This document shows, piece after piece, positions 3,638-36,853 of a stretch of 64,000 nucleotides of DNA; position 1 is the stretch's first letter, and each line of letters opens with the position of its first letter. The notes under the pieces were generated by a model. It was not told the DNA's origin, made no database searches, and saw only the letters and a list, made by a program, of their open reading frames with translations. Source of the DNA: a virus; the IMG/VR virus record IMGVR_UViG_3300029913_000009, positions 34,290 through 98,289 of that record; one strand, written 5' to 3'. The translations under genes and the position numbers were made by a program.

Positions 3638-3639
3638 TG

Positions 3640-12183: not shown

Positions 12184-12404
12184 GTTTCGCCGGTCAACTG
12201 ATGTAGTCGGACTCGTGTTCGGCTTAGGTATTAAGGGTGGCGGGTCAGACGGCGAATCAATAACATGGGTCGCCACCTAATAATTTTGGCAAGTGTAGCC
12301 TTAAGGCAGGAAAGCATCAATAATTTACAATCGGCCATACACTATTTGAACTTTCATAAACCTAAATAGAGACTGTGCCGTTTGGGCACTGTAAGGAGAC
12401 TACT

Positions 12405-13385
12405 ATGGCAATTCCAACACTGGTTCAAAAAGGCAAAAACTCGGTTGTCTATGCTACCAATGCACTTCAGGTGGCATTACCTACCACGGCAACGGCAGGT
12501 AACTGCCTCGTCATCGCAATTGAGGCTGCTAAAGTTACCGATCCTTTCAGCGTTACTCAGATGGCTGCTGGGGCAGATCGTATCGACGGTTCAACTCTTG
12601 TAACCGCCCCTCCAGTTGTTAAGGATAACCTTGGCAACACATTCTCGATCATTGACAGCCTCATCAATTTTGACGGCGACCTTGGTTACTACTCGACTAC
12701 CTATCTTTACTATGCGGCAAACGTCGCTGGCGGTAATCAGTATTTCAACGTCACTGTTGCTGATGTTACAGGAAGACCGACCTTTAATCATGGGCTCAAT
12801 GCTCAGGTGTATGAGTTCTCTGGCATCTCCACCAGCCCTCTCGACGGACATAACAGTCAAGAGTCTAATGCTAACCCTGCCGTAGCCCCCTCCATCACTA
12901 CTACTGCAACTGGCGATTTGGTTTTCCTTGTTGGGCACGCTCGTAAGACAGGTTCCATTTCTGTTCCCTCTGGTTTCACCCTTCTTGACTCCGGTCGAAT
13001 CAACGGCACTGCGAATGACTACCACGTCAGCGGGTTCCTTACTGGTGGCTCCATTGCTTCTCAGACGGTCACCATTGCTGATATTGCTATCACTTCAAAT
13101 GTGTTGACAGTCACTGGAACTAACACCCTCCAGACAGGGGCTACAGTCCTGCTTGCAGGTCTTACCACGAACACCTTTCTGAACGGCCAGACTGTGACAG
13201 TAACAGGTTCCACTGGTTCAACCTTTACCGCAGCCTTCACTCATGCTAACGTGAGCAGCGGTGTAGATACAGGCACTGCGGTTGGCGGACCAGCGTTGCT
13301 CCCTACAGGGGGTTACCAGCCGGGGTTTGTCAATCCGGGTCGCTACAACATCGGTGTAAGCATCCTCGCTCTGAAGCACAGCTAA
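12405..13385 (+). CDS. Thr/Gly/Ser-rich tail-fibre-like protein (start at ATG 12405 after TAAGGAG)
   Basis: Shine-Dalgarno TAAGGAG at 12390-12396. Long T/G/S/V-rich repeats (TVTGTNTLQTGATV.. GQTVTVTGSTGSTFT) and a terminator immediately downstream. Confidence 0.5.
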   Translation: MAIPTLVQKGKNSVVYATNALQVALPTTATAGNCLVIAIEAAKVTDPFSVTQMAAGADRIDGSTLVTAPPVVKDNLGNTFSIIDSLINFDGDLGYYSTTYLYYAANVAGGNQYFNVTVADVTGRPTFNHGLNAQVYEFSGISTSPLDGHNSQESNANPAVAPSITTTATGDLVFLVGHARKTGSISVPSGFTLLDSGRINGTANDYHVSGFLTGGSIASQTVTIADIAITSNVLTVTGTNTLQTGATVLLAGLTTNTFLNGQTVTVTGSTGSTFTAAFTHANVSSGVDTGTAVGGPALLPTGGYQPGFVNPGRYNIGVSILALKHS

Positions 13386-13407
13386 ACCACACTACGGTAC
13401 AACTGAA

Positions 13408-13440
13408 AAAAGCGGCCCACAAGGCCGCTTTTTTATTGCT
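13408..13440 (+). terminator. rho-independent terminator
   Basis: AAGCGGCC-CACA-AGGCCGCTT hairpin followed by TTTTTATT. Confidence 0.75.
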
Positions 13441-13550
13441 CAAAGGTACTCTTACCTCAGTATTAAGGTACAGTACGAGGCGGTTCAAGACACACGCTGC
13501 CTTATACGTAGATTACCACAAATCTAAAATTTGTCAATAAGAATGGGAAA

Positions 13551-14291
13551 ATGAGCGAAAACACACCGTATTTTGAAAGCATCACTTCGATTCGGGCAAT
13601 GCTTCTGGACGAGGACGAACAGCTAGAAGGGGCTACAACTATTAGTCTTGAAACTCAGGCCGACTTGGCCGAAGATGATATTTTGAGTTTCATTGGAGAG
13701 AACTTTGACCGTTTTTTAAAGACACTTAGATTCTTAAAAAGAGAGGATCAGGAGTTATTGCTCAGTTACTACCTTCTTAGCAAGACGCAAAACACCCTAG
13801 CCATCATACATAAGTCAACTCAAACAGTATGCAGCTTCCGTATCAGGATGGCAGTCAGAACTTTGGGGACGTTTATGCTGGTCGGCGGAGAGCCCACCGA
13901 AGAACTACTGCATGAGGTTTTAGACAAAGCGGGGTTGGAAAATTCACTGGATAAAGCTCCCCTATCTAAAGTCATTATGGAGTATGTCAGGTGCCGAAAC
14001 TTTCAACAGGTAGCCCTCCATTTCGGCCTACACCGACCTGACGTGCGTCGAGCGATGTCACGGGCATCCAAGGCCCTCATGGACTCCAAGGACGGCAAGG
14101 AAGCAGCTACAGCAGCTTGGGTGCATAGTCTAATTGATAAGGTGAGCGCGGTCGGCGTCGGCTTCTCTAAACGCAAAGCGCAGAAGATGGGTCACCTTTA
14201 TCGCAGTGATCCCGGCATCCTCGGCCAGTTCCGTATGGACATAGAAGACCCGAACTTCGGCCACATGTTTGTGTCGCGTGCGAACCGCTGA
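13551..14291 (+). CDS. sigma-factor-like or HTH regulator (246 aa) with two sigma-70 region-4-like HTH segments
   Basis: SKVIMEYVRCRNFQQVALHFGLHRPDVRRAMSRASKAL and ELLLSYYLLSKTQNTLAIIHKSTQTV resemble region 4 / HTH_LuxR-like helices. Confidence 0.35.
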   Translation: MSENTPYFESITSIRAMLLDEDEQLEGATTISLETQADLAEDDILSFIGENFDRFLKTLRFLKREDQELLLSYYLLSKTQNTLAIIHKSTQTVCSFRIRMAVRTLGTFMLVGGEPTEELLHEVLDKAGLENSLDKAPLSKVIMEYVRCRNFQQVALHFGLHRPDVRRAMSRASKALMDSKDGKEAATAAWVHSLIDKVSAVGVGFSKRKAQKMGHLYRSDPGILGQFRMDIEDPNFGHMFVSRANR

Positions 14292-14805
14292 TGAACGAAA
14301 AGATACCGAGGTTGGCTACAACATCTGCAAGGGTGGAGAAGGTTATACAGGCCTGTTCACCGATGCAATGAAGGCTGCATGGCACGCCGGTAACAAGAGA
14401 TACTGGGACAGTCAAGAACTTACACCCGGACAAGTATTCAACCGACTAACGGTCGTATCCAAGGCACCCTTGCGGAGGGGTAAGAAGCTTTGGAACTGTC
14501 AGTGTGAGTGTGGCAACACATCTAGAGTCACAACCTCTGCCCTCAAAAGTGGAAACATACGTAGCTGTGGGTGTCTCATCAGCGAAGCTGGTAAACAGCG
14601 GTGGGCTCAACGAGAACTCATCGGCCAGACCTTTGGGCATCTCACGGTCGAGTCAGAAGCTGAGCATTACCGGAGCCAGAAGCAATGGAAGTGCCGCTGT
14701 GTATGTGGCCGGTACACCACTGTCCGGACGGGTTCGCTAAAATCAGGCAACACTCAAAGCTGTGGCTACAACCACCCTATAAAGCTGTGGCTACAACCAC
14801 TATAA
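14269..14805 (+). CDS. protein with two copies of a Cys4 zinc-ribbon motif (W.C.C.CG....V....LKSG...SCGC); possibly a truncated homing-endonuclease-like gene
   Basis: The motif is repeated twice and is shared with the N-terminal part of the HNH_3-like protein at 48300-49031. The gene ends in a 17-nt direct duplication (14757-14800). The true start is probably internal, near 14373. Confidence 0.4.
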   Translation: MCRVRTADERKDTEVGYNICKGGEGYTGLFTDAMKAAWHAGNKRYWDSQELTPGQVFNRLTVVSKAPLRRGKKLWNCQCECGNTSRVTTSALKSGNIRSCGCLISEAGKQRWAQRELIGQTFGHLTVESEAEHYRSQKQWKCRCVCGRYTTVRTGSLKSGNTQSCGYNHPIKLWLQPL

Positions 14806-14860
14806 CATCTAAATACGGAACTCATATGTGAACGATAGAAAGACCCAAGGAGCAGTAAAA

Positions 14861-15871
14861 ATGCGGTTCTTAAAGTTGTTTACAGTTGTATCTCTTTTTC
14901 TATCCTCTCTTTCTACAATGGCAGTTTCAGTATCCACTCCACAGAACGCTGCCACAGTGCAGACCACATTCCCCATCGCAGCCACTGCAACCTCGTGCAA
15001 TGGTAAGCCAGTTGTGTCGATGGGCTACTCATTCGATTCATTGCCGACCGTGATGGCCAAAGCTGGTCAAGCTCTGAACGAAGAAGCAACTATAAGTGCG
15101 GGAAGCCATACACTGCGTATCAAAGCGTGGGGCAAGGGTACCGTATGCGTTAACGACATCAACCTCATCGTGGTCAAGCCTCCGGTTTCTCTTATCCCGT
15201 CTTATGCAATCTCTTCGGGTAATCTTACTGGAAACTCGTTATGGAAGTGTCAGCACGACTTAGGCACCAGTGGCTCATCCACAGCAGTCATGACCTACCC
15301 GGTTACGGAGGGTGGGTACACCGATGTGCAGAAGTATGAGGTCACTAGCTACTCAAATTATGGAGGAGAGCGTTGCTCCATTAACTTTGCCAAGGACACT
15401 TCCAGCCACAATTTCATCTATGACGTGTGGATACAGGTTCCGACACCATCACTGGTCGGCAACCTTGAACTGGACATGAATCAGGTGACAACTAACGGAA
15501 ACACTGTAATCTATGCGTTCCAGTGTTCTAAATGGTCTAGCACGTGGGATTATTCCTACGTTTCCAACAATGGCGGAGCGTTGGCACCGAAGTGGGTGCC
15601 CTCAAAGCTTCCGTGCAACGTGAAGAACTGGACAGCCAACACATGGCATCACGTTCAGATTTACACGTCTCGTGATGATTTGGGGAGTGTGACCTATCAC
15701 TGGGTGGCATTCGACGGCGTGGTCAACGAAATCAACACGACCACCTTCGAGGAGCAGGCTTTGAAATGGGCAATGGGTGCTTTGGTGGTAAATTTCCAGA
15801 TCGACCCGGCTCAAAGCACAGGACTTCCCATCACTGTTTATGCTCGTCAACTAACCATCTACCGCTGGTAA
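14861..15871 (+). CDS. secreted protein with N-terminal signal peptide (MRFLKLFTVVSLFLSSLSTMAVS)
   Basis: AAGGAG Shine-Dalgarno 8 nt upstream of the ATG at 14861 (the track start at 14828 is a GTG). Hydrophobic signal peptide. Confidence 0.55.
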   Translation: MRFLKLFTVVSLFLSSLSTMAVSVSTPQNAATVQTTFPIAATATSCNGKPVVSMGYSFDSLPTVMAKAGQALNEEATISAGSHTLRIKAWGKGTVCVNDINLIVVKPPVSLIPSYAISSGNLTGNSLWKCQHDLGTSGSSTAVMTYPVTEGGYTDVQKYEVTSYSNYGGERCSINFAKDTSSHNFIYDVWIQVPTPSLVGNLELDMNQVTTNGNTVIYAFQCSKWSSTWDYSYVSNNGGALAPKWVPSKLPCNVKNWTANTWHHVQIYTSRDDLGSVTYHWVAFDGVVNEINTTTFEEQALKWAMGALVVNFQIDPAQSTGLPITVYARQLTIYRW

Positions 15872-21899: not shown

Positions 21900-22148
21900 C
21901 TAGCTAACGTAAGCGACGATTTCGTAGTTACCGGAGGGCATCTTGTACCAAGTCATGCTCAGCCAAGTCTTCTCACCAACCGGCTCATTGCTGCGACCTT
22001 CGCGACCGCAGAAGATGGCGGGTTCCATTCCGTTGAAACCTGCGGCGGTCAGGATGCTGTCGATGTCTTCAATGGGGATGAACGGGTGGTAGGTCGGCAT
22101 TGCAGCTAACCTCTCGTTTGCGACTTTCCGGGCTTTCAACTCGTTCAT
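21900..22148 (-). CDS. hypothetical protein (82 aa)
   Basis: Promoter copy at 22165-22220 followed by a GGAGGA Shine-Dalgarno site and the ATG. Confidence 0.5.
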   Translation of the reverse strand: MNELKARKVANERLAAMPTYHPFIPIEDIDSILTAAGFNGMEPAIFCGREGRSNEPVGEKTWLSMTWYKMPSGNYEIVAYVS

Positions 22149-22164
22149 GGTGTTTCCTCCACAT

Positions 22165-22220
22165 GATTAGTATATCGGAGACACCAACGTTTTGGATACT
22201 ATTTCAGGAAATTATTTCCA
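22165..22220 (-). promoter_or_regulatory. phage promoter copy (TATCCAAAAC-N9-CTCCGATATACTA) with Shine-Dalgarno-containing leader
   Basis: Conserved motif. Confidence 0.6.
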
Positions 22221-22779
22221 TGTCCTTCTCGTTCGCAATTTCAGCCTCGTACAGCTTACGAGCGTAGGCGATGTGCTCCTCGGTCTGAGGGACGCCGCCA
22301 GCGTTCAACTGGAGAAACAGCCAGAGAACATCCGACCGCTTGACTTTACCACGTTGTAGCGTAGCCGCTTGAATCATGATGTCGCAGAACGCATATTTGT
22401 CCCGCCGTGAAAGCTGATACCACGTCTTACCTTCAAACTCGAAGCGACCCTCGTAAAATTCCGTGATAGCCCGAAGCCGTTGCTTGCCGTCGATGACTTC
22501 CAGCCGATACTCACGGTAGTTCTCATCCTCAAGGAAAACGAACTTGCCAATGTCAGCCCGGTTGAAAATGCTCCGAATAAGTTTCTGCTTGTCTTCCAGA
22601 GTCCAGACATAGCCCCGCTGATAGTCGGGGCTGTCGATGAGACCCCGGTGGTACACCATGTGAATCAGGCTATCCAACGAAGTCTGGATGTAGTTGGTGT
22701 TGAGGCGTGGCCGGGAGAACGCTGTGTCGCTTTCGAGTGCGAGAGGGTTGGCCTCAGTCCACCAACAAAGACGCGGCAT
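22204..22779 (-). CDS. DUF262/ParB-like nuclease-fold protein (DGQQR motif: VIDGKQRL)
   Basis: The ..IFNRADIGKFVFLED..YRLEVIDGKQRLRAI pattern matches the DUF262 N-terminal domain of GmrSD-like proteins. Confidence 0.55.
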   Translation of the reverse strand: MPRLCWWTEANPLALESDTAFSRPRLNTNYIQTSLDSLIHMVYHRGLIDSPDYQRGYVWTLEDKQKLIRSIFNRADIGKFVFLEDENYREYRLEVIDGKQRLRAITEFYEGRFEFEGKTWYQLSRRDKYAFCDIMIQAATLQRGKVKRSDVLWLFLQLNAGGVPQTEEHIAYARKLYEAEIANEKDMEIIS

Positions 22780-22913
22780 TCGACCGGCATCATACGGTTT
22801 ACGACGGCTCAGGGATGTTTACACGTTCATGAGCGCGGGACGACCCCCACTGTTCCCACTCGTGAGCGAGAAAATCCTCGTAGGTCACAGGCTCTTTCTT
22901 TTTTGTTTGACGC

Positions 22914-23327
22914 TTACTTGCCATTGGAATCTCCTACGACCACCATAGGGTCGAGCTTCGGTATGTAGTTGGGGGACTTCTCTTGGCTCCTGATGGCCGG
23001 TTCAACAGTGATGCTCGTAACGTAGTTGTAAGCATCCGCGATAATCGCAGGGGTCAGGGTAACCTCAAAGTTCCTGAGTGTGGAGGAGACGACCGGCGTG
23101 GCCTTGATAAGCTGTGCCCAGTGGTCGGGATGGATGTGTGCCTCACCGTTGTGGCTGTACAGATTTTTGACCCAGACACAGCCTGTGCTGGTTGAAACAA
23201 AAAGGATGGCAACTTTACGACATCCGGGGAGGATACCCTTCACGTTGTGGCTGACGGAGTACCCAGACTTACACAGGTTGTTGGCCGAGACCACAATCTT
23301 CGATGAGGTAATGTGGAGTTCCTTCAT
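22914..23327 (-). CDS. JAB/MPN (RadC-like) metalloprotease-like protein; leaderless start MKELHITS at 23327
   Basis: E...HIHPD..S spacing resembles the JAMM motif E-x(n)-HxHP-x(n)-S. The promoter copy at 23331-23388 ends 5 nt before the ATG, so the longer track ORF reaching 23408 is not used. Confidence 0.4.
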   Translation of the reverse strand: MKELHITSSKIVVSANNLCKSGYSVSHNVKGILPGCRKVAILFVSTSTGCVWVKNLYSHNGEAHIHPDHWAQLIKATPVVSSTLRNFEVTLTPAIIADAYNYVTSITVEPAIRSQEKSPNYIPKLDPMVVVGDSNGK

Positions 23328-23330
23328 ACA

Positions 23331-23388
23331 TGTAGTATATCGGAGACTCCGAGGTTTTGGATAGTTTTTTGGGATTTTTTTAGTCCCT
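23331..23388 (-). promoter_or_regulatory. phage promoter copy (CTATCCAAAAC-N9-CTCCGATATACTA)
   Basis: Conserved motif; leaderless. Confidence 0.6.
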
Positions 23389-23448
23389 TCTTGATGGGCT
23401 CGTTCCACAAACCCATTTGCAGAGCATAATTCCCGTGAGCGTAGCGAA

Positions 23449-24224
23449 GTTGGATTCAGCCTTCAAATCCAGTAAGTCTACAGGTTCCGCCATCCACACG
23501 TGAGTGCCATCAGGGTTGGATTCAGCCTTCAAATCCAGTGGGTATACGGGCAACCCAAAGACATCACGGCTGCGTTCCGTAGGTGGATTTAGCCTTCAAA
23601 TCCAGTAAAGTCTACAGGGACAGTACCAAGGCAAGCTTCGTTGGATTCAGCCTTCAAATCCAGTAAGCGGTGCAGCAATATGTTGGATTCAGCCTCCAAA
23701 TCCAGTATACAGGTTTCGACGTTCAACGGTACATCCCTCCGTTGGATTCAGCCTCCAAATCCAGTAAATCTACAGGTGTGCCAAAGCTGACTGTTGGATT
23801 CAGCCTTCAAATCCAGTAAGTCTACAGGGCTTTACTCAGACTCCGAATACCTGATCTAGTTGGATTCAGCCTTCAAATCCAGTAAGTCTACAGGGAGAAC
23901 CAATGACGGCCCTCAGTATGCTGGGTTGGATTCAGCCTTCAAATCCAGTAAGTCTACAGGTGTTGCCACCTATGGCACAACCCAAGTTACGTTGGATTCA
24001 GCCTTCAAATCCAGTAAGTCTACAGGGTTGATGTCTTTTCATTAACAATCATCTCTGTTGGATTCAGCCTTCAAATCCAGTAAGTCTACAGGTCTCCATT
24101 GATTTTATCCTCGGGCTCTCCCGTTGGATTCAGCCTTCAAATCCAGTAAGTCTACAGGTTAGGAACCTATATACGCATCGGCGGCTATGTTGGATTCAGC
24201 CTTCAAATCCAGTAAGTCTACAGG
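23449..24224 (-). CRISPR. CRISPR array: 13 repeats of 36 nt (GTTGGATTCAGCCTTCAAATCCAGTAAGTCTACAGG on the plus strand), spacers of 30 nt; repeats 2-6 (23515-23776) are degenerate or truncated and spacers 3-6 are shortened to 21, 14, 27 and 16 nt
   Basis: Eight perfect repeats (23449, 23793, 23859, 23925, 23991, 24057, 24123, 24189) separated by unique 30-nt spacers, plus degenerate copies. The repeat contains the hairpin TGGATT-CAGCCTTCA-AATCCA. Orientation is inferred from the promoter at 24240-24272 and the position of the decay, so transcription probably runs on the minus strand. Confidence 0.9.
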
Positions 24225-24239
24225 AGGATAGCCCCAACC

Positions 24240-24272
24240 CATAGATTATACACCAATTGCCTTAACTAGAAC
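24240..24272 (-). promoter_or_regulatory. variant phage promoter driving the CRISPR array (CTAGTTAAGGC-N8-TATAATCTA)
   Basis: The minus strand reads CTAGTTAAGGCAATTGGTGTATAATCTATGGG and then the first repeat 12 nt later. It resembles the consensus CTAGCCAAAAC..TATACTA. Confidence 0.5.
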
Positions 24273-24310
24273 CTCAGGAAAACGCGAGAAGAGTATTGAT
24301 TATCCTCTCG
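24262..24310 (-). terminator. bidirectional hairpin terminator between the 856-aa gene and the array
   Basis: CGCGAGA-AGAGTATTGATTATCC-TCTCGCG stem with T/A tracts on both sides. Confidence 0.6.
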
Positions 24311-24322
24311 CGTTTCTCGTTT

Positions 24323-26893
24323 TTAAGCTGACGCGGCCAGAGCTTTGTCAACAAGGGCTTCAACAACCTCCTCGACCGTCACGCCACGCTTGAATGCGAC
24401 GTGCTTGAGGATGGTTGTAAATTCGGCCAGTGATGCCCACGAGCGGTACTTCTGCGAAGCATCGGAAGCCATTTTGTCGCCCTTGTCCTTCTTCTTGGCG
24501 CGGGTCTCTTTCTCTGAAGCGTCCTTGAGGTTCAATTTCTTGTAAGAGATGGTTGACGCATGGTCGCAGATGCGGTGTGCGAGAACATAGTAGTAAGCTT
24601 TACGGCGTCCCAACAGGTTCTCACGCACCATACGCTCTACAGTGCGAAGGCGGTCGTTGAACTCAAGCCAGCGAAGCCAGAGACGAAGGAGTTCGGGGTT
24701 AGAGCCGAGCGGTTTGGACTTCTCGCTCTGACGACTTGGGTTAGTGTTGTAGGTTGTAGTTAGCGTCCCGGCACCAATGCGGAGTTCGTTGATGTAACGA
24801 ACCATGCCAGACTGGCGAACCATACGCCAACCTGCCGCGTCAACAATGTTCCGCTGCTCCTCAGTCATAAGCTTGTACCCCTCATCCTTGGCCGCGTTGA
24901 GCAGAAGGTCAAGCTGCTCCGGTAGTGACAAGAGGGTAGTCTTAAGCCAATTGTACGTCAAAGTATTTGTGCGGAAGTGTGCCTGAAGTTCTGCCTTCTG
25001 GGCATTTTTAATGGCTTCCTCACCCGGCCATCCGTATAACGTGCGGAATGCCAGTGTATACCCCGACTTGCGCGACCAAACGTTGCCCTTCTTCGTGCTG
25101 TCACATCCTTCAGCGAAGAGTCCTTCGGTCTTCCACTCTTCGCCGAGAGGCAAGTAGTAGTCGTTTGTCTGCCCGGTCGGAAGAGACTCGGTAACGATTT
25201 TCAACTGGTCGTCTTTCGCCAGCTTCCATCCGAGGGTGAGCTTTGCCGACCCGGTGCCCCGCGTATCGTACTTCTCGTTAGTCTTGACTTCTGCAAGGCA
25301 GAAGTTGAGGTAGCACTGGGGCACCTGCTTGGTCGCTGGTGCCGCAAGACCAGAGTTTCGACCATTTTGGTCGGCGTATTTAACCACTTTGCGCTTCTCT
25401 GTCTTGAAGGACACAATGACCTTTTTCACCTTAGCGTTCAGGTCAACATCATCACGGTGAACTAGGACGGCCAACTTGAAGGGGTCGGTGCCCTTGCCAT
25501 CGGTGAGTGAAACGCCGTGCAATGACCGCTTGGCAGCGCAGGAGCCCGGTGTCATAGGCTTGAACTCAGGTGTGACCACAAAGTCGTCGCCAACAGCCGT
25601 TACGGTGTGACGAAATGCTTTTCCAGTGTTGATTGAATCCAGCGGGGCGGTGAACTGGATATGCGGAACCTTGTTATCCAGCACTTCCCGGAGGGTTTTC
25701 TTTCCACGTACGTCGTAGGAGACCTGCCATGTGTCCTCATCAATGCGGATGTGTTTCGGCCAGCCTTTGTCGTAAGGACTATTCTTCGATTCACGCTGTT
25801 TCAACACAGCTTGAAAGCGAGTGGATATTTCACCCATTTCTGCGGGGGGGACAGCCAGCATCTTGCCGATGTAATTGAAGAGGTTACCGCTCCATGGCTT
25901 TGCACCATTCATCCAGACCTCCCCCATGCCATCGGCCCAGTTGGTTTCCTCTATATTGGTGAAAAGCGCCTTGAGTGCTTTGAGGGGCTCTTTGTGGCGT
26001 TTCAATTTACCCAGTTCTGTTTTCAGATAATTAGCGAGAAGGGTCTCCGGGTCGCTCTCAGCCACCCCACAAACGAGAACCTTAACCTTTTCTTCCTTCT
26101 CATACTTGTCGAGGCGGTATATGAAGTAGCGAAGGTCAGAAAAGTTGGCTGGGTATTTGGCGTTGTCGCGAAGATTTTTCGGGAGAGGTAACTTAGCCTC
26201 GCGTCCACGAGTAGCATAGTGAGCGTTCATGGAGTCCACAATCACTTTGCGGATGCGCTCGATGATGGCCGTGGATTCGGCTGACAACGTCGTGCGACGG
26301 TATGCAGACACCTCCCTATCGTCGGTTAGAAGCATGGCAACACTTTTGATGTGTGGTGTCCAGTTTGTTGTTGTGTCTCCAACATCCTCGCTCTTCTGCA
26401 AAGTCCATTGGAGTAACAAGGCGAGAATATTCCATACCAAGCGCCAGTTGGTCTTCTTATCTGCGGCCCACTTGGGTAAAACTGCACCGGAGGTCTCCAC
26501 ACCACGATGATGGTAGAACAGCCGGTTCTTGAGGGTGAGGTAGCCGGTCCCTTTGGCTGCTATTTCTTCCTTGGTCTTGTTACCATGGTTGCGGTTCTCG
26601 CCTTGGAAGAAAAGGTCACCGTTCTCAAGCTTCTTGGTTTGCACACCGCGTTCGATGTTGAACACTCGGCTGTTGTGGTTGGTGAAAATGATGGTTAAAG
26701 GGGTGTTCTCAGCGAGAGTGAGCCCCAAGGGATAAGACTCTCCCTTGAATGCTACTTGATTGTCGGAGAACGTCATACTTCCAGATTTGACGAGTGCCAA
26801 AGGACGGCCCTTCTTGGCAAGTTCGGGGTGGGTGCTCATCGTCAGGTAGAACACCCCGTCGATACTGTGTGCTTTTACTTCTGAGAAATTCAT
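24323..26893 (-). CDS. large uncharacterised protein (856 aa) immediately upstream of and co-oriented with the CRISPR array; candidate CRISPR-associated protein of unknown type or an unrelated phage protein
   Basis: Long ORF with an AAGAAGGG Shine-Dalgarno site, last gene of an operon. No RuvC D/E/D motif, no zinc finger, no HNH. Only one weak R-x4-H (RLFYHH). Confidence 0.6.
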   Translation of the reverse strand: MNFSEVKAHSIDGVFYLTMSTHPELAKKGRPLALVKSGSMTFSDNQVAFKGESYPLGLTLAENTPLTIIFTNHNSRVFNIERGVQTKKLENGDLFFQGENRNHGNKTKEEIAAKGTGYLTLKNRLFYHHRGVETSGAVLPKWAADKKTNWRLVWNILALLLQWTLQKSEDVGDTTTNWTPHIKSVAMLLTDDREVSAYRRTTLSAESTAIIERIRKVIVDSMNAHYATRGREAKLPLPKNLRDNAKYPANFSDLRYFIYRLDKYEKEEKVKVLVCGVAESDPETLLANYLKTELGKLKRHKEPLKALKALFTNIEETNWADGMGEVWMNGAKPWSGNLFNYIGKMLAVPPAEMGEISTRFQAVLKQRESKNSPYDKGWPKHIRIDEDTWQVSYDVRGKKTLREVLDNKVPHIQFTAPLDSINTGKAFRHTVTAVGDDFVVTPEFKPMTPGSCAAKRSLHGVSLTDGKGTDPFKLAVLVHRDDVDLNAKVKKVIVSFKTEKRKVVKYADQNGRNSGLAAPATKQVPQCYLNFCLAEVKTNEKYDTRGTGSAKLTLGWKLAKDDQLKIVTESLPTGQTNDYYLPLGEEWKTEGLFAEGCDSTKKGNVWSRKSGYTLAFRTLYGWPGEEAIKNAQKAELQAHFRTNTLTYNWLKTTLLSLPEQLDLLLNAAKDEGYKLMTEEQRNIVDAAGWRMVRQSGMVRYINELRIGAGTLTTTYNTNPSRQSEKSKPLGSNPELLRLWLRWLEFNDRLRTVERMVRENLLGRRKAYYYVLAHRICDHASTISYKKLNLKDASEKETRAKKKDKGDKMASDASQKYRSWASLAEFTTILKHVAFKRGVTVEEVVEALVDKALAASA

Positions 26894-26958
26894 AGAGTCC
26901 CTTCTTTAGAATCTTGTGCATAATCTTGTTCGAGCCATCATCGGCGCTTCAGACAATT

Positions 26959-27258
26959 CTACAAGGTTACAGTATCCGCGTCAACATGCCACTCACCCTT
27001 CTTAAGTTGGCCGTTGGGTGTGTCCTTGGTCTGACGATACACAGTGACGCCATCAACCGTATACTCTTCGAACACGCGGTGTCCGGTTCCCTCGACCTTG
27101 ATGAGGCTCTCCGCATGTTCGTTTGTCTTCGCAAACACAAAGTATGTACCAAATTTGGTTGCCACAACTCGCGGCACTCCAGTCAATACTTTGGTTCCCT
27201 TCGGGGTCACAAGAGACTGTACCCCACCACGCTGCAATTCCAGTTTTAACTTTGCCAT
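26959..27258 (-). CDS. hypothetical protein (99 aa, start MAKLKLE after AAGGGGAGG)
   Basis: Shine-Dalgarno site plus the ATG at 27258; sits between the helicase gene and the 856-aa gene. Confidence 0.5.
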   Translation of the reverse strand: MAKLKLELQRGGVQSLVTPKGTKVLTGVPRVVATKFGTYFVFAKTNEHAESLIKVEGTGHRVFEEYTVDGVTVYRQTKDTPNGQLKKGEWHVDADTVTL

Positions 27259-27262
27259 GTTA

Positions 27263-30200
27263 CTACCTCCCCTTTCGTATTTCAAACAGGAGATGCCGGT
27301 TAGGCATCTGTTTTGGTTCTTTGAATTTCAGACCGTTGAGTTTGAATGCTTTGGTTAAATTCTCCCGTACCCAAAGTTTACCACCAGCTTTCTCAGATTG
27401 GTAGGATTCAATAATGATGGCACGGCCTTTAGGAGCTAATAGCCGTGCCATTTCTCGGATGCTGCGTTCGTAATCCAACCGGAATATTGAAAGGACAGAC
27501 ACAATAAGGTCGAACGAACCATCAGGAAGTTTTGTTGCATTTCGGTCGAGTCGTAAAATTTGAGGGTACTCAATATACGCTTCCTCTGTCAAGAGCATGT
27601 CCACAAAAGTTACATTCTGGAGGCCAAGTTCCTGTGCATACTTAGGTTCAGTTGTACCGCAGCCCAAGCTTAGAATACGTAGGTTGGTGCTCTTCACTAC
27701 AAAGGTATCATACACAAGCTTGTACGCTTTGCTGGTGAGTTCATTGGCAGCATGATACTCAGCTAGATTATATGTTCTACCCGTGGTAGCGATAAGCAGG
27801 TCACCTTGCCGTTTGGGTGGCAGTGTGGCTGAGTGAGAGTTCGCATACAGCCGATGAACATCCATCATTACTGTTCTAGGTGGGGTGTACTTCCGAGGCT
27901 TGAGTGGCGTGGTAATATCCACAACGGTGGCAGCGGGGGTCACTTCCACTCCAGATAACCGCAAGATGTTATCCTTGTTCCTGAGGTACTCCTGTTCGAT
28001 ACGTTTTGGGTTAATAGGGACAATGGTTCCATCTAAAACAACCAAGCTGCTTCGCCGCCGCTGACACAGCCGTGACCAACGATTTTCGTGATACTCAGCA
28101 TCCTTCGCCAGCATTACGATGCACGCCACACCAGAATTCAAGAAGGGTGAGCCAATGCGGCGTATACGGCGATGAAGTTGCTCGAAGTTAGCGTAATGCC
28201 ACGGAGAGCCCATGATAAACATGGTGTCAGAAAGATTCTGAAGACCGTCCAGACCAACCGATAGGGGGGCACTGGCAATGAGGGTACATTTACCTTTATG
28301 CCTCTTAATGATTTTGAGCAGCTTGTCTTGCTTGTGCATCCCAGTGTAGATGTACACTGGGTACCCCGGTCTCATTTTCTCAGCCCATTCTTTCAGCACA
28401 AAGACAATTCGATTGCTTTTTGTGTCGGTGAACTGTGTATAAAGAATGGGGCATGAAGCTTCTACAAACGCTTTTTTAAGCACTGGATTGGATTCGATAA
28501 TCTCACACTGCCTCGGCAGCATTTCAACCTCCATGTCCAGTATCGTGCGACCCTCGGAAAGGATGTTCGATTGATACTGAGCCATAATGACGCAGTTCAC
28601 AACTGGGTCTTCGAAGAGTTCAACCTCTTCGTATACACCAAGAGTTATCGGCTTCACAATGGGTAGAAGGTTAGGATTGATGTAGAAGCGAAATCCATTG
28701 CGGAACAGAAACAAGCGGAGCTTCAAAAGGCCGGATACACCCTCGCCAGTTGCGTTCTTAAGTTCATCACCTGAGACTATCTCCAATACTCGAATAAGCT
28801 CTTCGGCCTCACACCGAATGGGGGTGGCTGACATGAGGTACCTCAAGCACCGAGGGTTAAGTTGTATTGCTGCACTAATAAGACGACAGTAATGATTCAG
28901 CCGTTTGGTACTGTCTATATCATCATTAGAGCCGGAGAATACTTGGGGCTCATCAGTGACAATCATATCCCAGCGAATCTTGGAAAGCTGGTCAATTAGG
29001 TCGGGGTTGTTCTGCACCGTGTACTCAGTTACTAGCACATAATTACGCCGCTTTGATTCCAACTTCTTGAGGTCGAATACGTCACGGCAGTTGAAGATGT
29101 TTTGCCTGTGCTCGTTCTCCCTCTTTGCCATCAGCTTCCATTGACTGTCGTTATCGTTATCGTTATCAATCGTAGATTTTGTACCGAGGATAAGAACATT
29201 CTCTAGTTCCAACTCCTTCGCAATTGCATATACGGTGCTGGTTTTTCCGGCTCCGGCCTCGCTTAGATTGAACCCAAGAAGATGTCCGCTGTGAGCGAAC
29301 CAATAAACGCAATACGCTTGCATCCAGTTGCGATTCTCGGTTCGGTAACGTTTCACCTGTTCAAAGAGGGTTGTAAATTGCTTACGAGTATCAGTCATGC
29401 ACTCAGCAAGGCACTGTTGTAAGCGTTCGAGACCGTGGAATTCTAAATGCATCCACAGTAACTGGTTCATCTGTTGTATTAACATCTCAGGTATATTTGC
29501 AGCCGTGCCATAGTATCCACTGGGGTACGTCCGCATCAATTTGTCAAGTTTTTTGATAGACGTGGGGATGTCTTCAGGTTTCGGGCATGTATCGGGGGGG
29601 CTAACCTTAGGGGTCTCAGGCTCCTTAGGGGTTTCTAGTAGTTGCCGCCGCTCATCGTCGTTCTTGCAGTCGCACAAACGTTGGATGAGAGTTTCGACCG
29701 ACAAGTTCAGTTTCTTCGCACATGCATCCAAGCAACCACCGTAGTCGCCAATGACAGCCAGCAAAAGATTTTGAAAAGCTGAACGTATTTCAACTGTTGC
29801 TGCGTGCGTAGCTTCCCGAGTCCACGCCAGCCGCTCTTCGATGTAGTTTGAATGGAGGAGATTCAACAACTCATCGGTTGTGATGTAGTCGGGAATTCCA
29901 AGATACTGCCCCCATTTGTTGTACCTGTTGAAGCGGTTGCCCCACTCGGGGTGTTCAATACTCGGGTTACGCAGTGCTCCAGCGATTACTTTTTTCTCAT
30001 CCCACAAACGAAGGCAATCCTCCTCCGTTCGTGCCCCCATTTCATATCGGGCTTTGCCATCCTGTATTAAGTCAGGAGCTAACGCCGGATTGAATCCGCT
30101 ACCGCATTCAATCAAAGTTGAACCCGGAGGATGATGCCAGTTAAGCCCCTTACACCTTCCACAAAAACAAAGTCGGGTTTGTGTGGGGATTTCGTAGGTG

Positions 30201-30319
30201 TACTCAATATCCCCCTTGACAAACCAATTTCCAATTTGGGCTCCCACCGGGAGTATTTCACCCTCACCCTTGTCGCGAACCAAAACTTGGTTATCAATTC
30301 GTACAATAGTCGATGCCAT
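27263..30319 (-). CDS. SNF2-family SF2 helicase fused to a C-terminal class I SAM-dependent methyltransferase (1018 aa), with an N-terminal Cys-rich region
   Basis: Helicase motifs: Walker A LSEAGAGKTST, motif II DEPQ, motif III LMSATP, motif VI EQLHRRIRRIGS. Methyltransferase motifs: motif I ILSLGCGTT, FDLIVS and LAPKG. A leaderless start follows the promoter at 30323-30385. Confidence 0.7.
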   Translation of the reverse strand: MASTIVRIDNQVLVRDKGEGEILPVGAQIGNWFVKGDIEYTYEIPTQTRLCFCGRCKGLNWHHPPGSTLIECGSGFNPALAPDLIQDGKARYEMGARTEEDCLRLWDEKKVIAGALRNPSIEHPEWGNRFNRYNKWGQYLGIPDYITTDELLNLLHSNYIEERLAWTREATHAATVEIRSAFQNLLLAVIGDYGGCLDACAKKLNLSVETLIQRLCDCKNDDERRQLLETPKEPETPKVSPPDTCPKPEDIPTSIKKLDKLMRTYPSGYYGTAANIPEMLIQQMNQLLWMHLEFHGLERLQQCLAECMTDTRKQFTTLFEQVKRYRTENRNWMQAYCVYWFAHSGHLLGFNLSEAGAGKTSTVYAIAKELELENVLILGTKSTIDNDNDNDSQWKLMAKRENEHRQNIFNCRDVFDLKKLESKRRNYVLVTEYTVQNNPDLIDQLSKIRWDMIVTDEPQVFSGSNDDIDSTKRLNHYCRLISAAIQLNPRCLRYLMSATPIRCEAEELIRVLEIVSGDELKNATGEGVSGLLKLRLFLFRNGFRFYINPNLLPIVKPITLGVYEEVELFEDPVVNCVIMAQYQSNILSEGRTILDMEVEMLPRQCEIIESNPVLKKAFVEASCPILYTQFTDTKSNRIVFVLKEWAEKMRPGYPVYIYTGMHKQDKLLKIIKRHKGKCTLIASAPLSVGLDGLQNLSDTMFIMGSPWHYANFEQLHRRIRRIGSPFLNSGVACIVMLAKDAEYHENRWSRLCQRRRSSLVVLDGTIVPINPKRIEQEYLRNKDNILRLSGVEVTPAATVVDITTPLKPRKYTPPRTVMMDVHRLYANSHSATLPPKRQGDLLIATTGRTYNLAEYHAANELTSKAYKLVYDTFVVKSTNLRILSLGCGTTEPKYAQELGLQNVTFVDMLLTEEAYIEYPQILRLDRNATKLPDGSFDLIVSVLSIFRLDYERSIREMARLLAPKGRAIIIESYQSEKAGGKLWVRENLTKAFKLNGLKFKEPKQMPNRHLLFEIRKGR

Positions 30320-30322
30320 TAC

Positions 30323-30385
30323 GTTATAGTACCTGAACTCGCTGGAGTTTGGCTGTAGATTTTAGTAATTATTTTTCGTCCTCAA
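30323..30385 (-). promoter_or_regulatory. variant phage promoter (AGCCAAAC-N9-TTCAGGTACTATA) heading the helicase/MTase - 99 aa - 856 aa operon
   Basis: The motif has a 5-nt gap to the ATG and an upstream AAAATAATTACTAAAAT tract. Confidence 0.55.
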
Positions 30386-30812
30386 ACACGTTAAGCCTCT
30401 TTTCGAGCAAGAGCAATTGCCCAATCGGATGAACCTCAGCCTCAAGTCGTTCAATCTTGCCCCGAAGCTTGAAGTAGTCACGAGTCCACTTCTTGTCGAT
30501 GACGCCATTAGCGTGCTTGAAGCCAAGCCCGTTCACGGCGCATGTGTGCATAGCACAATGCGGACGAAGGTGTGGCGCGACCGTGCAGCCTTTGTCGCCA
30601 TCGAGGTAGTAGGCCCCTCGGTGATTCGTTGGAGGGTACTCTGGAAGGTCAGTGACACCCCATACGTCCTTCGCAATGCTTTTAGTGATGTCACAGGACA
30701 TCTGATCGCAGCAGGAGTGAGGCACACGACAGGAACCTTCGCCCACACCGGCACACTCCGGGGCGGTCAAGTCGGCCATTTTTTGGTACAAAATCACCAG
30801 CTTGTCGCTCAT
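30369..30812 (-). CDS. Cys-rich hypothetical protein (147 aa)
   Basis: ORF track entry with many Cys/His residues. Confidence 0.45.
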   Translation of the reverse strand: MSDKLVILYQKMADLTAPECAGVGEGSCRVPHSCCDQMSCDITKSIAKDVWGVTDLPEYPPTNHRGAYYLDGDKGCTVAPHLRPHCAMHTCAVNGLGFKHANGVIDKKWTRDYFKLRGKIERLEAEVHPIGQLLLLEKRLNVFEDEK

Positions 30813-31147
30813 CGAATCAGCTTGTACGCTTTCTCGGCGGAGTTGACGAAACTAACAACGTCAGGGTTGAGTTTGACTTTACCACTGGTGATAGCTGGGT
30901 CATCACGTAGCGTACGCAGAACGGTCAGGCAGTTCTCAATCAGTTGCCGCAGGTCTCTTACTTCATCGGAGACTAATCTCATCAAGACGCTCCTTCGCTT
31001 TCAGTTCCAGTCCTAGTGCGTTGGCAACGATGCTACCAATTTGCATGTAGCCAATGTCGGCAAGGGTAATACGAACCTTTGTGCTGCCCTCCAGCTTCAC
31101 GACAACCCCACCCGTGAGGAGTTGCCTCAAATCGCGTCCTTCGAGAA

Positions 31148-33020: not shown

Positions 33021-34295
33021 TTACCTTTCCGCTTCGCTCTTGACGAAGGCTGCTGTTTCCTGCACCCCGGATTCGAACTTAGCGAAGCCGAGTGCCTGTT
33101 CGCGGGTGGTCAATGTGCCGTTTAATTGACCGAACTCCACCGCCCTTAAAACCGTGGTGAACATCGGCCCCGGCGTGAATCCCATCTCTATCAAATCCCG
33201 GCCAGAGACAAACGGTGATGGGCGTATGTCTTCCGGCGTTAATGCCCTGTACCGCAGTACTGCATCCATCCCTGCCTCTACACCGTTTGCAAAGCCCAAA
33301 CCTATGTTCTGCTCGAACAGGTCTACTGCATACGGCAGTACACCCTTCTCACGAGCCAACAGCTTGGTACCAGCCGGAGAGCCAATTGAACCTATGGCTT
33401 CCTGATTTCTAACCGCACCCAAGATGGCGTCACGTTCATCCGTAGACAGCTTGAAGCTGTCGCAGGTCAACGCTGCCATCTCGTTGGTCTGAGTATCAGC
33501 CAGCAACATCGCCAGACCCATCACGGGGTCGGTTGTTTGGAACATAGCGAACCGCTCCAGTGTAAAGGCGAAGCGCGTATCGGAAACACCGTCAGGCAGC
33601 AGACGACGCAGCAAACCAGTAGACGCCAACGCCGCCAACCCTCTGGCAGCGAACTTGGATGTGGTCAGCTTCTTCAACTCCTCCGCAACACGTTCGCGGG
33701 AGACGTTGACTATGCTGTCCACGTTCGCCTGTAGGGCCTTGAAGGTTTCCGCCTCTATCTCGAAGCCTAACTGACCAACGAAGCGAACCGCACGCAACAT
33801 CCGCAATGCATCTTCTTTGAAGCGCGTGTCGGCATTGCCGATACACCGGATGACCCGGTTTTCGATGTCATCCCTGCCGCCCACGTAGTCGAGGACGCCG
33901 AGACTGTAATCGGTCATGAGGGCATCAAACGGATTGGCTATCAGGAGCCCGTTCATGGTGAAGTCCCGCCGCTTTACATCTTCCTCGGCGGAATTGCTGT
34001 AGGTAACCTCATCGGGGCGACGGCCATCGCTGTAGGCACCGTCAGCACGATAGGTGGCGACCTCAAACTGAAACCCTCCCACCATCACCACCACGACGCC
34101 GAATGCAGCACCGACTGGTATGGTCTTATCAAACAGGGGAGTGACCTGCTCTGGACGGGCATTGGTTGTGATATCAAAATCCTTAGGAGTCCGTCCCATC
34201 ACAAAGTCACGAACACAACCACCAGCAAAGTAGGCTTCAAATCCTGCCTTGCGGAGGGTGTTCAACACGAATTCAGCGGCTTCTCTCATGTCCAT
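33021..34295 (-). CDS. cca: tRNA nucleotidyltransferase (CCA-adding enzyme) / poly(A) polymerase family
   Basis: N-terminal GGCVRDFVMGRTPKDFDITT and RDFTMNGL motifs of the class II Pol-beta nucleotidyltransferase head. Leaderless start after a promoter copy. Confidence 0.8.
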   Translation of the reverse strand: MDMREAAEFVLNTLRKAGFEAYFAGGCVRDFVMGRTPKDFDITTNARPEQVTPLFDKTIPVGAAFGVVVVMVGGFQFEVATYRADGAYSDGRRPDEVTYSNSAEEDVKRRDFTMNGLLIANPFDALMTDYSLGVLDYVGGRDDIENRVIRCIGNADTRFKEDALRMLRAVRFVGQLGFEIEAETFKALQANVDSIVNVSRERVAEELKKLTTSKFAARGLAALASTGLLRRLLPDGVSDTRFAFTLERFAMFQTTDPVMGLAMLLADTQTNEMAALTCDSFKLSTDERDAILGAVRNQEAIGSIGSPAGTKLLAREKGVLPYAVDLFEQNIGLGFANGVEAGMDAVLRYRALTPEDIRPSPFVSGRDLIEMGFTPGPMFTTVLRAVEFGQLNGTLTTREQALGFAKFESGVQETAAFVKSEAER

Positions 34296-34555: not shown

Positions 34556-35014
34556 TCATTGGCCTCCCGGCACTCGCAGATTGAAGTATTCGTCGCCACG
34601 GTCTGATGTCAAACAAAACCGGGTGTCAGCACCATGCTTGATGATGAGACTGGCGATGAATTCCCGGTAGTCGGCCAGCGTGGTCTCATGTCCGGTGACC
34701 TTAAGAGTCGTCCACACGATGCCGGGTGTGGAAATCATGACCTCTAGGTTGTTATTCTGAAACACCAACAAGCCGGGGTTTTGCTCCAGCCGGTAAAGAC
34801 GCCAAGCCCTCGCGGCAAGGCTTTCGCCGCCGTGGATTTGATGGGTCTCATTGTCAATGAGTCGCTCTACGACCTGCTCGAAAAGGTGTAGATTGACGGC
34901 CAAGCCAAAAATTAGATTGACGGCCAAGCCAAAAATTTCAGCGTACTTTACTCCCATCTCTTTGACGGTTTCGGGAGTGGCTTCGGGTAGTTGGTTGTAA
35001 ACGTCCAATATCAT
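34556..35014 (-). CDS. hypothetical protein (152 aa) containing a perfect in-frame 24-bp tandem duplication (IFGLAVNL x2)
   Basis: DNA 34889-34912 is identical to 34913-34936. Confidence 0.45.
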   Translation of the reverse strand: MILDVYNQLPEATPETVKEMGVKYAEIFGLAVNLIFGLAVNLHLFEQVVERLIDNETHQIHGGESLAARAWRLYRLEQNPGLLVFQNNNLEVMISTPGIVWTTLKVTGHETTLADYREFIASLIIKHGADTRFCLTSDRGDEYFNLRVPGGQ

Positions 35015-36502: not shown

Positions 36503-36853
36503 AGGCCGAGAAAACCAAAGACCAGCCGATTCTGCAAAGTAAAGCTGGGTGCCACCGCCGCGAGGGCGATGAGCATCAAGCCGCTGATGGCGTTCCCACC
36601 AGCTAGAAACCGACGAAGGGATGCCCCTCGTTGTTTCATCTGTGCGAGTTCATATTCATAATCACGACTCACTTTTTCATCCCCTTGGCAGTGAAACCGA
36701 TGCTGAAACAATAGATGGAAGAGAGGCCAAGAAGCGAGTACATCAACACAGCGTCGAAGGGGTTGACTGGGGGTTTGAATATGAACAGGAACACAAAGAG
36801 GGCGAACCCAAAGATGAATCCCATTCCCGCGACAAATGCTCGAAGTATTCCCA

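Follow-up and report, generated by a model that had tools for sequence, protein, structure and literature searches.

Several reports exist on Cas12 proteins that bind DNA without cutting it. Cas12m, the effector of type V-M CRISPR (clusters of regularly interspaced short palindromic repeats) systems, binds double-stranded DNA (dsDNA) flanked by a protospacer-adjacent motif (PAM), leaves it uncut and protects by blocking transcription or replication, and the maturation of its precursor CRISPR RNA (pre-crRNA) is independent of RuvC (PMC11013384, PMC10442227). The published Cas12m handles end in a stem followed by ACA immediately before the guide (PMC11013384 supplement). Systems of type V-M are enriched on plasmids and are present in some prophages (PMC11656645). 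Altae-Tran et al. have described a "gradual inactivation" within V-M and, outside it, branches that are inactivated altogether (PMC10691335), and a 2026 preprint has reported a myxophage Cas12m with an intact catalytic triad as the first phage Cas12m. Binding-only Cas12 proteins (Cas12m, Cas12c, Cas12k, TldR, dCas12f-sigmaE) have become a fast-growing theme, with examples published on plasmids, transposons, chromosomes and, for some TldRs, prophages. Here we describe a CRISPR array and the effector gene that adjoins it on a viral stretch of 64,000 nucleotides (nt), positions 34,290 to 98,289 of IMG/VR record IMGVR_UViG_3300029913_000009; this whole stretch is called the window below and is numbered from its first letter. 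With a probability that we put at about 0.72, the locus is a self-contained, adaptation-less, crRNA-only type V system of an acidic peat-bog jumbo phage that acts by RNA-guided DNA binding and silencing. The effector lies on a 247,905-bp contig, which indicates a jumbo phage, and the surrounding element is phage-like: 88 open reading frames (ORFs) hit 55 PHROG families, most genes run in one direction, on the minus strand, and there are 13 occurrences of a promoter-like motif. The parts of the locus are the following.

24323..26893, minus strand: effector gene of 856 amino acids (aa), predicted to encode a nuclease-dead, C-terminally truncated Cas12 (a Cas12m-related "long form") that serves the array
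24275..24316, minus strand: intrinsic terminator hairpin closing the effector transcript (14-bp stem, -19.5 kcal/mol, z = -2.8, then a U-tract)
24245..24269, minus strand: candidate array promoter by consensus, extended -10 TGTATAAT at 24245-24252 with CTAGTTAAGGC upstream
23449-24224, minus strand: CRISPR array, 13 copies of the 36-nt repeat GTTGGATTCAGCCTTCAAATCCAGTAAGTCTACAGG with 30-nt spacers
23793..24224, minus strand: leader-proximal regular part of the array, seven perfect repeats at a 66-nt period with six unique 30-nt spacers
23515..23776, minus strand: degenerate block of five units with shortened spacers, damaged 5' parts of the repeat and an intact or nearly intact 25-nt handle core
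23419..23484, minus strand: terminal perfect repeat (23449-23484) and the 30 nt downstream of it

Thirteen copies of a 36-mer are not explicable by chance, and this is a genuine CRISPR array, with regularly spaced direct repeats and unique spacers of similar length. The repeats start at 23449, 23515, 23582, 23640, 23682, 23741, 23793, 23859, 23925, 23991, 24057, 24123 and 24189, and each spacer is unique within the window. Substitutions and indels mark the degenerate units, whose spacers measure about 16, 27, 14-17 and 21 nt; the gaps from core to core within this block are 27, 34, 17, 33 and 42 nt, against 41 nt in the regular part. On the minus strand the repeat reads CCTGTAGACTTACTGGATTTGAAGGCTGAATCCAAC, and the last 25 nt of it, a core made of the hairpin plus AC (ACTGGATTTGAAGGCTGAATCCAAC), have the same sequence in 10 of the 13 units, the others having one loop substitution (two units) or two substitutions (one unit). 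Because the core is kept and the stem can form in all 13 units, decay affects only spacer length and, within the repeat, the 11 nt at its 5' end. The 30 nt downstream of the terminal repeat would be a thirteenth guide, given the 5'-handle geometry of type V crRNA. The original prediction, made from the letters of the window, had counted 13 repeats of 36 nt with 30-nt spacers, a degenerate block at 23515-23776 and a perfect repeat at 23449, and all of these were located again at the same positions.

The repeat hairpin has the 8 bp that had been predicted, including two G-U pairs, and stops 2 nt, not 3 nt, before the 3' end of the repeat. Its fold energy is -6.1 kcal/mol on the minus strand versus -4.3 kcal/mol on the plus strand. 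Among 21 distinct variants of the repeat core, taken from all loci, 98.6% of cells show pairing in the 7-bp stem; for nearly every stem substitution, pairing persists solely through G-U wobble in the minus-strand RNA, and one compensatory change replaces A-U by C-G. The G-U-compatible substitutions, the constant orientation of the array with respect to its effector gene and the lower fold energy of the minus strand together argue for transcription of the minus strand, in the direction of the neighbouring genes, as had been proposed. Rfam assigned the array neither to CRISPR-DR nor to any other family at gathering or permissive threshold. Nowhere else in the 64-kb window, on either strand, was a match of at least 11 nt to the repeat found, so the window holds no candidate for a trans-activating crRNA (tracrRNA), in agreement with the single-crRNA design of Cas12m. 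The guide architecture is thus that of V-M, with crRNA only and a 3'-terminal repeat stem beside the spacer. A "CAAC" end supposedly shared with Cas12m repeats was ruled out by the published crRNAs, and the geometry of a stem plus 2-3 nt is all that is common. The type V-like 5' handle of the original prediction holds; the type VI-A reading offered beside it does not, nor do those of type II and type VI-B, there being neither Cas9 nor an anti-repeat for type II and, for type VI, no HEPN protein and an effector with a Cas12 fold.

The effector ORF lies directly upstream of the array and is co-oriented with it. The original prediction had seen no recognisable effector within 40 kb, a view that the adjacent Cas12m-like ORF overturns in favour of the other possibility raised at the time, namely that the array supplies guides to a system whose effector had escaped recognition. 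The accompanying statement that cas1, cas2 and cas6 are lacking was borne out: among the 88 window ORFs there is no Cas1, Cas2, Cas4 or Cas6. The only Cas-type matches in the window are the effector itself and an unrelated IS605 TnpB (40736-41944). The 856-aa protein has no match in Pfam, PHROGs, NCBIfam or the PDB sequences (phmmer), and the PADLOC models of Cas12u1 and Cas12f match its residues 742-844. An exhaustive HMMER search of 1.84 billion representatives returned ten relatives, while a word-indexed search returned one full-length homolog. The ten comprise one homolog of full length, P0001 (844 aa, 53-55% identity); a fragment whose sequence is that of the window protein; P0003, P0004 and P0005 (731-860 aa), which have its N-terminal architecture; and five shorter proteins (486-582 aa) matching the PADLOC models of Cas12u1 (V-U1) and Cas12f.

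At the catalytic positions the window protein has T in RuvC-I (LTLGWK) and K in RuvC-II, and RuvC-III is absent; P0001 has K in both RuvC-I and RuvC-II and likewise lacks RuvC-III, and P0004 has V, E and Y at the three positions and keeps a remnant zinc ribbon. Both the window protein and P0001 end about 15 residues past a strand of the form GV.V.E(V/I), GVTVEEV in the window protein, after which the long-form relatives have a C4 zinc ribbon and the catalytic RuvC-III helix. No match to PF07282 (TNB) was found in the window protein, versus one in each of 32 relatives that keep catalytic residues. There is no space for a split gene, since the stop codon is directly followed by the terminator, the promoter and the array. 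A structure model was built from a 34-sequence alignment (single-sequence AlphaFold2 gave a predicted local distance difference test score, pLDDT, of only 35), and it keeps five RNase-H strands (548-582, 784-790, 839-843) with nothing beyond them. The WED, REC and RNase-H-fold scaffold is kept, and the TNB zinc ribbon is lost along with each of the three catalytic positions of RuvC, from which the effector is predicted to bind and not to cut. As in type V systems generally, this is a single large effector encoded beside an array, TnpB-derived and bilobed, with a C-terminal RuvC-like RNase H fold. It has neither an intact RuvC D-E-D triad nor a TNB zinc ribbon between RuvC-II and RuvC-III; the triad is also missing in the accepted V-K and in part of V-M, and its loss does not therefore exclude type V. 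Its closest sequence and structural relationship is to Cas12m proteins, yet it is not the compact effector of about 600 aa with WED, REC, RuvC and TNB expected for V-M, having 856 aa, an N-terminal extension and no TNB.

Related phages carry the same module. Three features upstream of the effector come into this comparison.

27263..30319, minus strand: superfamily 2 (SF2) helicase (ResIII/Helicase_C) fused to a C-terminal S-adenosylmethionine (SAM) methyltransferase, 1018 aa, with Pfam and PHROG matches
26962..27258, minus strand: conserved small ORF of 99 aa without a family match, between the helicase-methyltransferase and the effector
26956..26984, minus strand: candidate for a sigma-70-like promoter (TTGACG-17-TAGAAT), upstream of the start codon of the effector, a consensus match

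P0001 occurs on six contigs, where the helicase-methyltransferase is followed in turn by the small ORF, the effector, the terminator hairpin, TGCTATAAT and an array with 37-38 units. In this lineage the helicase-methyltransferase is 55% and the small ORF 74% identical to those of the window, and the repeat is GTTTTATACCTACTGGATTTTATGGCTGAATCCAAC, which has its 3' core in common with the window repeat. A third related phage, L014, carries P0004 (860 aa), about 25% identical to the window effector, in the order CCA-adding enzyme, helicase-methyltransferase (1062 aa, 26% identical), small ORF (37% identical), effector, terminator, TGGTAATAT and a first repeat, ...CTGTAGTCTTAGTGGATTTGTAGGTTGAA..., which is cut off by the contig end. 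Effector, terminator, extended -10 and related repeat thus follow one layout in the window, in L001-L006 and in L014. The effector ORFs are intact over 844-860 codons at 53% and about 25% identity, a divergence that matches that of the neighbouring genes, and intact frames of more than 840 codons at such divergence argue for purifying selection on the effector. Conservation of the module across lineages also argues against a relic. Because P0004 is dead as well and retains a remnant of the zinc ribbon, the loss of nuclease residues predates the split of the lineages and the truncation came later.

The terminator hairpin that had been predicted upstream of the array is present, and an equivalent one stands at the corresponding place in L001-L006 and L014. 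In the window it is followed by CTAGTTAAGGCAATTGGTGTATAAT, which occurs once. Between terminator and first repeat all three lineages have a TGn-type extended -10 element, from which the array is predicted to have its own promoter. The original prediction is supported on this point; it had further taken the promoter, CTAGTTAAGGC-N8-TATAAT at 24245-24269, for a variant of a genome-wide phage promoter, and this part is not upheld. The array element is the single copy of its kind in the window. The recurrent promoter-like motif is ACTAGCCAAAA-N13-GGTATACTA, in which the distance from CTAG to the -10 is 6 nt longer than in the array promoter. The latter is better described, by its consensus, as an extended -10 type than as a clear variant of the phage-wide motif. 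The 13 copies of the recurrent motif lie as follows.

59059, 57652, 56587, 49121, 40573, 40214, 39839, 39459, 35539, 34309, 23341, 22176 and 20763, all minus strand: GGTATACTA-type elements

The motif is strongly conserved; each copy stands shortly before an ATG and has an AT-rich element upstream. Its lack of a canonical -35 points to a sigma factor or an RNA polymerase specific to the phage. Sigma-70-like sites such as that before the effector are not more numerous in the region than in shuffled sequence.

The long-form relatives with catalytic residues show what the window protein has lost. With P0003 as query, a family of 32 members was recovered (711-802 aa; P0003 and P0011-P0041), located on plasmids or integrative elements of Acidobacteria type and all with a Cas12f1-like TNB zinc ribbon. 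RuvC-I has D in 27, E in four and H in one of them, RuvC-II has E in 28, and RuvC-III has D in all 32; judged by these residues, they are presumably active or Cas12m-like. Like the window protein they have the N-terminal architecture, with a full-length alignment at 20-24% identity. Unlike it they have lost neither the C4 zinc ribbon nor the D-E-D triad, and the two loci inspected are not phage-borne. Both of these have downstream arrays of 36-nt repeats ending in hairpin plus AC, in the geometry of the window, with repeat sequences that differ from the window repeat, and in neither is there an adjacent helicase-methyltransferase. The P0003 locus is part of a 211-kb contig that also carries PRTRC, SSB and DnaB genes; the second belongs to a Terracidiphilus metagenome-assembled genome and lies beside integrase and IS91 genes. 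On the former contig (L010, 590-8008) P0003 is found beside a PRTRC cassette (PRTRC_E, Prok_Ub, Prok-E2_D, ThiF), an SNF2-like helicase, SSB, DnaB and a PIN/PhD toxin-antitoxin pair, which points to a large plasmid or integrative element. Searches for related loci, with P0003 as query in genomes and with a different query in IMG/VR, confirmed nothing.

The spacers tell of turnover in the sister phages. Arrays of the P0001 lineage are otherwise common to its contigs and differ by four 30-nt spacers at the leader-proximal end, flanked by perfect repeats: L001 and L003 begin with s1 and s2 and continue from s3, L002 and L008 begin with sX and continue from s3, L004 has sY followed by s11, and L006, a deletion variant, starts at s11. 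Polarity at the leader end and the fixed length of 30 nt are apparently the signature of leader-end acquisition in this lineage; recombination between co-infecting phages is an alternative source of these differences. The array of L001 (12651-14950; also in L002 and L008) is a composite of 37-38 units with many shortened spacers and conserved handle cores, in which internal promoter-like elements TGGTATAAT replace the 5' part of the repeat in units 9 and 27, and unit 29 has a leader-like remnant. This composite supports an origin of irregular blocks by recombination and deletion and, together with the absence of unit 8 from L016, upholds the earlier view that the degenerate block of the window reflects deletion or recombination and not simple trailer-end decay. 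In the window lineage the array is static over four contigs except for L016. As a separate observation, L007 has at 1278-1314, away from any array, a solitary perfect sister-lineage repeat that a guide-like sequence follows, some 60 nt upstream of a tRNA gene; this could be a single-guide unit, possibly regulatory, and the window has no counterpart.

Searches for a host and for targets gave little. The repeat core had no match in 185,579 reference genomes (species) or in IMG/VR, although uncultured hosts outside the collection may carry it; it was found only on three further contigs, from two Joint Genome Institute (JGI) metagenome datasets that also hold contigs of the P0001 lineage. Megablast of 22000-31000 against GenBank phages gave no match. 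Against GenBank phages and PLSDB plasmids the spacers gave matches only at E >=3, six 22-nt spacer seeds had no match in IMG/VR, and the best 30-mer matches within the window itself carry at least 11 mismatches. The sole match to related loci, 17 of 18 nt, was that of a degenerate sister spacer to positions 27410-27427 of the window in reverse complement (plus strand, about 36574-36591); with E of about 0.009 and 70 queries, it fits what chance would give.

On the preferred reading, the effector transcript would end at the strong terminator and the dedicated extended -10 promoter would then drive the array as a pre-crRNA. Each unit would yield a crRNA with a 5' handle from the 25-nt hairpin core followed by a 3' guide, the processed RNA beginning inside the repeat, upstream of ACUGGAUUUGAAGGCUGAAUCCAAC. 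Guided by it, the effector would most likely bind dsDNA and block transcription or replication, as in Cas12m, with no residual nuclease. Targets could be competing phages, plasmids or host genes. The processing of crRNA, the binding of DNA, the silencing outcome and the source of the machinery for spacer acquisition are in this sense what we infer.

Several points weigh against this reading. Confidence in the effector model is moderate (pLDDT 70.5, predicted template modelling score 0.58), and its global template modelling (TM) scores to Cas12m are low (0.3-0.4). All characterised Cas12m proteins keep the TNB zinc finger and a full RuvC fold. No protospacer was found for any spacer in GenBank phages, PLSDB plasmids, IMG/VR (six seeds) or 276 kb of related loci, and Cas1 and Cas2 were not found among the window ORFs, so that the apparent leader-end acquisition lacks an explanation. 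Transcription, processing and crRNA loading, too, we infer.

A dead Cas12 might instead recruit a partner, here the syntenic SF2 helicase-SAM methyltransferase and possibly the 99-aa protein, as DinG in type IV-A, the Cas3 of Cas12m-Cas3 hybrids and Cas12k in CRISPR-associated transposons (CASTs) illustrate. This is doubtful, and the evidence is divided. The order of helicase-methyltransferase, small ORF, effector and array is kept in three lineages despite effectors at about 25% identity, but unrelated genes such as the CCA-adding enzyme are also syntenic, and the order may merely reflect the architecture of the phage genome. The complete loss of TNB and RuvC-III could mean that effector function was handed over, and Cas12m-Cas3 and other multicomponent dead-Cas12 systems have been reported by FLSHclust (PMC10910872); on the other hand, the two inspected relatives with catalytic residues have no adjacent helicase-methyltransferase, and a terminator and a separate promoter stand between the array and these genes. 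Bolder and unlikely is the idea that a lytic jumbo phage with a dead, zinc-ribbon-less Cas12 and an updated array delivers the helicase-methyltransferase and the 99-aa protein to chosen loci. If true, the outcome would be DNA methylation or remodelling guided by RNA, or a guided shutdown of host genes during takeover. To our knowledge none of these is known for any natural class 2 CRISPR system.

Three other explanations have very little likelihood. In the first, that of an orphan array, the crRNAs are loaded into a host Cas effector, and the dead Cas12 beside the array is a relic or plays no part. The window has no adaptation genes, and the presumably active relatives are found on Acidobacteria-type elements from similar habitats, both of which would suit it. 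We consider it highly improbable, since the repeat core is in none of the 185,579 genomes, the two inspected relatives with catalytic residues have other repeat sequences, and the array is always linked to its own intact effector gene, with which it is co-inherited in three diverged phage lineages. Phage mini-arrays of the orphan kind have a host-identical repeat and no phage effector, whereas here an effector gene adjoins the array. The orphan array exploiting host Cas proteins, one of two options in the original prediction, is not supported; the search of host genomes with the repeat, which it had recommended for finding a cognate cas locus, gave no match in the 185,579 genomes, and the recommended search for spacer targets was negative as well.

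It is equally hard to credit that the protein is an anti-CRISPR decoy, by which a dead Cas12 would compete for the crRNAs of a host Cas12 or shield phage protospacers from cleavage. A phage-encoded Cas9 with inactive RuvC and active HNH has been proposed to sequester host crRNAs (PMC10910872), and presumably active homologs exist in the likely host phylum. That Cas9 is reported without an array, however, whereas the present effector has its own large array, a dedicated promoter and spacer turnover; the window spacers match nothing in the window, and repeats of the host type differ in sequence.

In the third, a phage type V system was once active and the locus is what is left of it, in decay and without function. 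The lost catalytic residues and C-terminal module, the partly degenerate array and the nearly static arrays of the window lineage (one deletion over four contigs) would point to this. It is scarcely probable in view of ORFs that in three lineages, at 25-55% identity, run without a stop for more than 840 codons, a handle core and stem kept even in degenerate units, a conserved terminator and promoter architecture and fresh 30-nt spacers at the leader end in the sister lineage.

Other features of the window are listed here as observations in their own right.

40736-41944, minus strand: IS605-type TnpB of 402 aa (OrfB_IS605 and Cas12f1-like TNB), unrelated to the array effector
22204-22779, minus strand: 191-aa protein with only a GmrSD N-terminal (DUF262-like) domain and NsnA-like and PD-T4-2-like PADLOC matches, two genes downstream of the array
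60360-62915, minus strand: 851-aa ORF, unusual for a phage in having domains of the major vault protein (MVP_shoulder, E 4e-23; Vault_3, E 4e-10)
33021-34295, 37940-39445, 42401-43648, 47278-48318 and 55372-56265, all minus strand: gene cluster of nucleic-acid and host-takeover type, with a CCA-adding tRNA nucleotidyltransferase, a PARP-like ADP-ribosyltransferase with a PARP regulatory domain, a ClpB-like AAA+ protein, an HNH-RNA ligase fusion and an ATP-dependent DNA ligase-like protein
3640-7617, minus strand: 1325-aa ORF with a C-terminal domain of Xre/MbcA/ParS-type antitoxins (E 6e-7) and zinc-ribbon-like motifs
34889-34937: exact tandem duplication of the 24-nt unit TAGATTGACGGCCAAGCCAAAAAT (two copies), in frame of the 152-aa ORF 34556-35014
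11392-15871, plus strand: five ORFs (263, 336, 246, 178 and 347 aa) in an otherwise minus-strand region

The TnpB was considered as an effector of the array and rejected; it is 14 kb away, matches other (Cas12f-type) models and has its own omega RNA. The sister phage L001 encodes a longer GmrSD_N protein at 2995-3834. Flanking the 1325-aa ORF are very large ORFs (911 and 867 aa) without family assignment, and four of the five plus-strand ORFs were scanned against Pfam, with no match.

If the preferred reading of RNA-guided binding and silencing is right, a phage lineage has long kept a Cas12 after the loss of every catalytic residue while handle, promoter and, in the sister lineage, apparent spacer acquisition were maintained. 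The proteins form a natural series, from active through point-inactivated with a zinc-ribbon remnant to truncated, that bears on which parts of Cas12 an R-loop without cleavage needs. The system also offers a case in which to ask how a virulent phage profits from silencing that it can program, and it poses the puzzle of where an adaptation-less phage array obtains new spacers. A practical lesson is that the effector was missed by Pfam, PHROGs, NCBIfam and PDB sequence search. No description of a system of this type was met in the literature searched, and catalogues of V-U subtypes outside that search may include the family.

Compared with known systems, V-M (Cas12m, formerly V-U1; MmCas12m, GoCas12m 8pm4, Cas12m2 8hhl/8hio) is the best match of the window protein by sequence profile and by structure. 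The two are alike in the use of crRNA without tracrRNA, in a repeat stem-loop 2-3 nt before the spacer, in the usual absence of an adaptation module, in being borne on mobile elements and in impaired or absent DNA cleavage, binding and silencing having been shown for Cas12m and being predicted for the window protein. They differ in size (856 versus about 600 aa), in an extra N-terminal beta-rich region and larger helical insertions, and in that similarity is limited to the WED and RuvC regions, with 8-14% identity in structural alignments. The window protein, unlike Cas12m, also lacks all three catalytic positions, the TNB zinc finger and the RuvC-III segment, and is found on a jumbo phage and not on a plasmid. 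TldR and dCas12f-sigmaE are likewise naturally nuclease-dead TnpB or Cas12 derivatives, some of them truncated C-terminally with loss of RuvC-III; they exert RNA-guided control of transcription, and some are prophage-encoded. They are much smaller, however, use a single fixed omega-RNA-like guide and belong to a different branch of the TnpB tree. A TldR is a TnpB-sized protein with a single guide and no array, whereas here there are 856 aa and 13 units, or 37-38 in the sister phages. Cas12k (the V-K CAST), CasMu-V and Cas12c resemble the window system as array-associated Cas12 proteins that bind DNA uncut, and CasMu-V has been reported without a RuvC-III motif. Cas12k and CasMu-V are linked to transposase genes, Cas12k needs a tracrRNA, and the RuvC of Cas12c is active for crRNA processing, in all of which they differ from the window system; TnsB, TnsC, TniQ and MuA are absent from the 88 window ORFs, which sets it apart from the CRISPR-associated transposons; the IS605 TnpB, 14 kb off, is the one gene of transposon type in the window. 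Cas12j/CasPhi, CasLambda, Cas12r of Thermus phages and MvCas12m of a myxophage are, like the present locus, phage modules of effector plus array without cas1 and cas2, and are thought to act in conflicts between mobile elements. These phage type V systems keep the RuvC catalytic residues and are nucleases or presumed to be so, whereas the window effector appears from its residues to be catalytically dead and truncated. What is new relative to the known systems is therefore the size and N-terminal architecture of the effector, the loss of the full triad, the deletion of TNB and RuvC-III together with an apparently live array, and the location on a jumbo phage.

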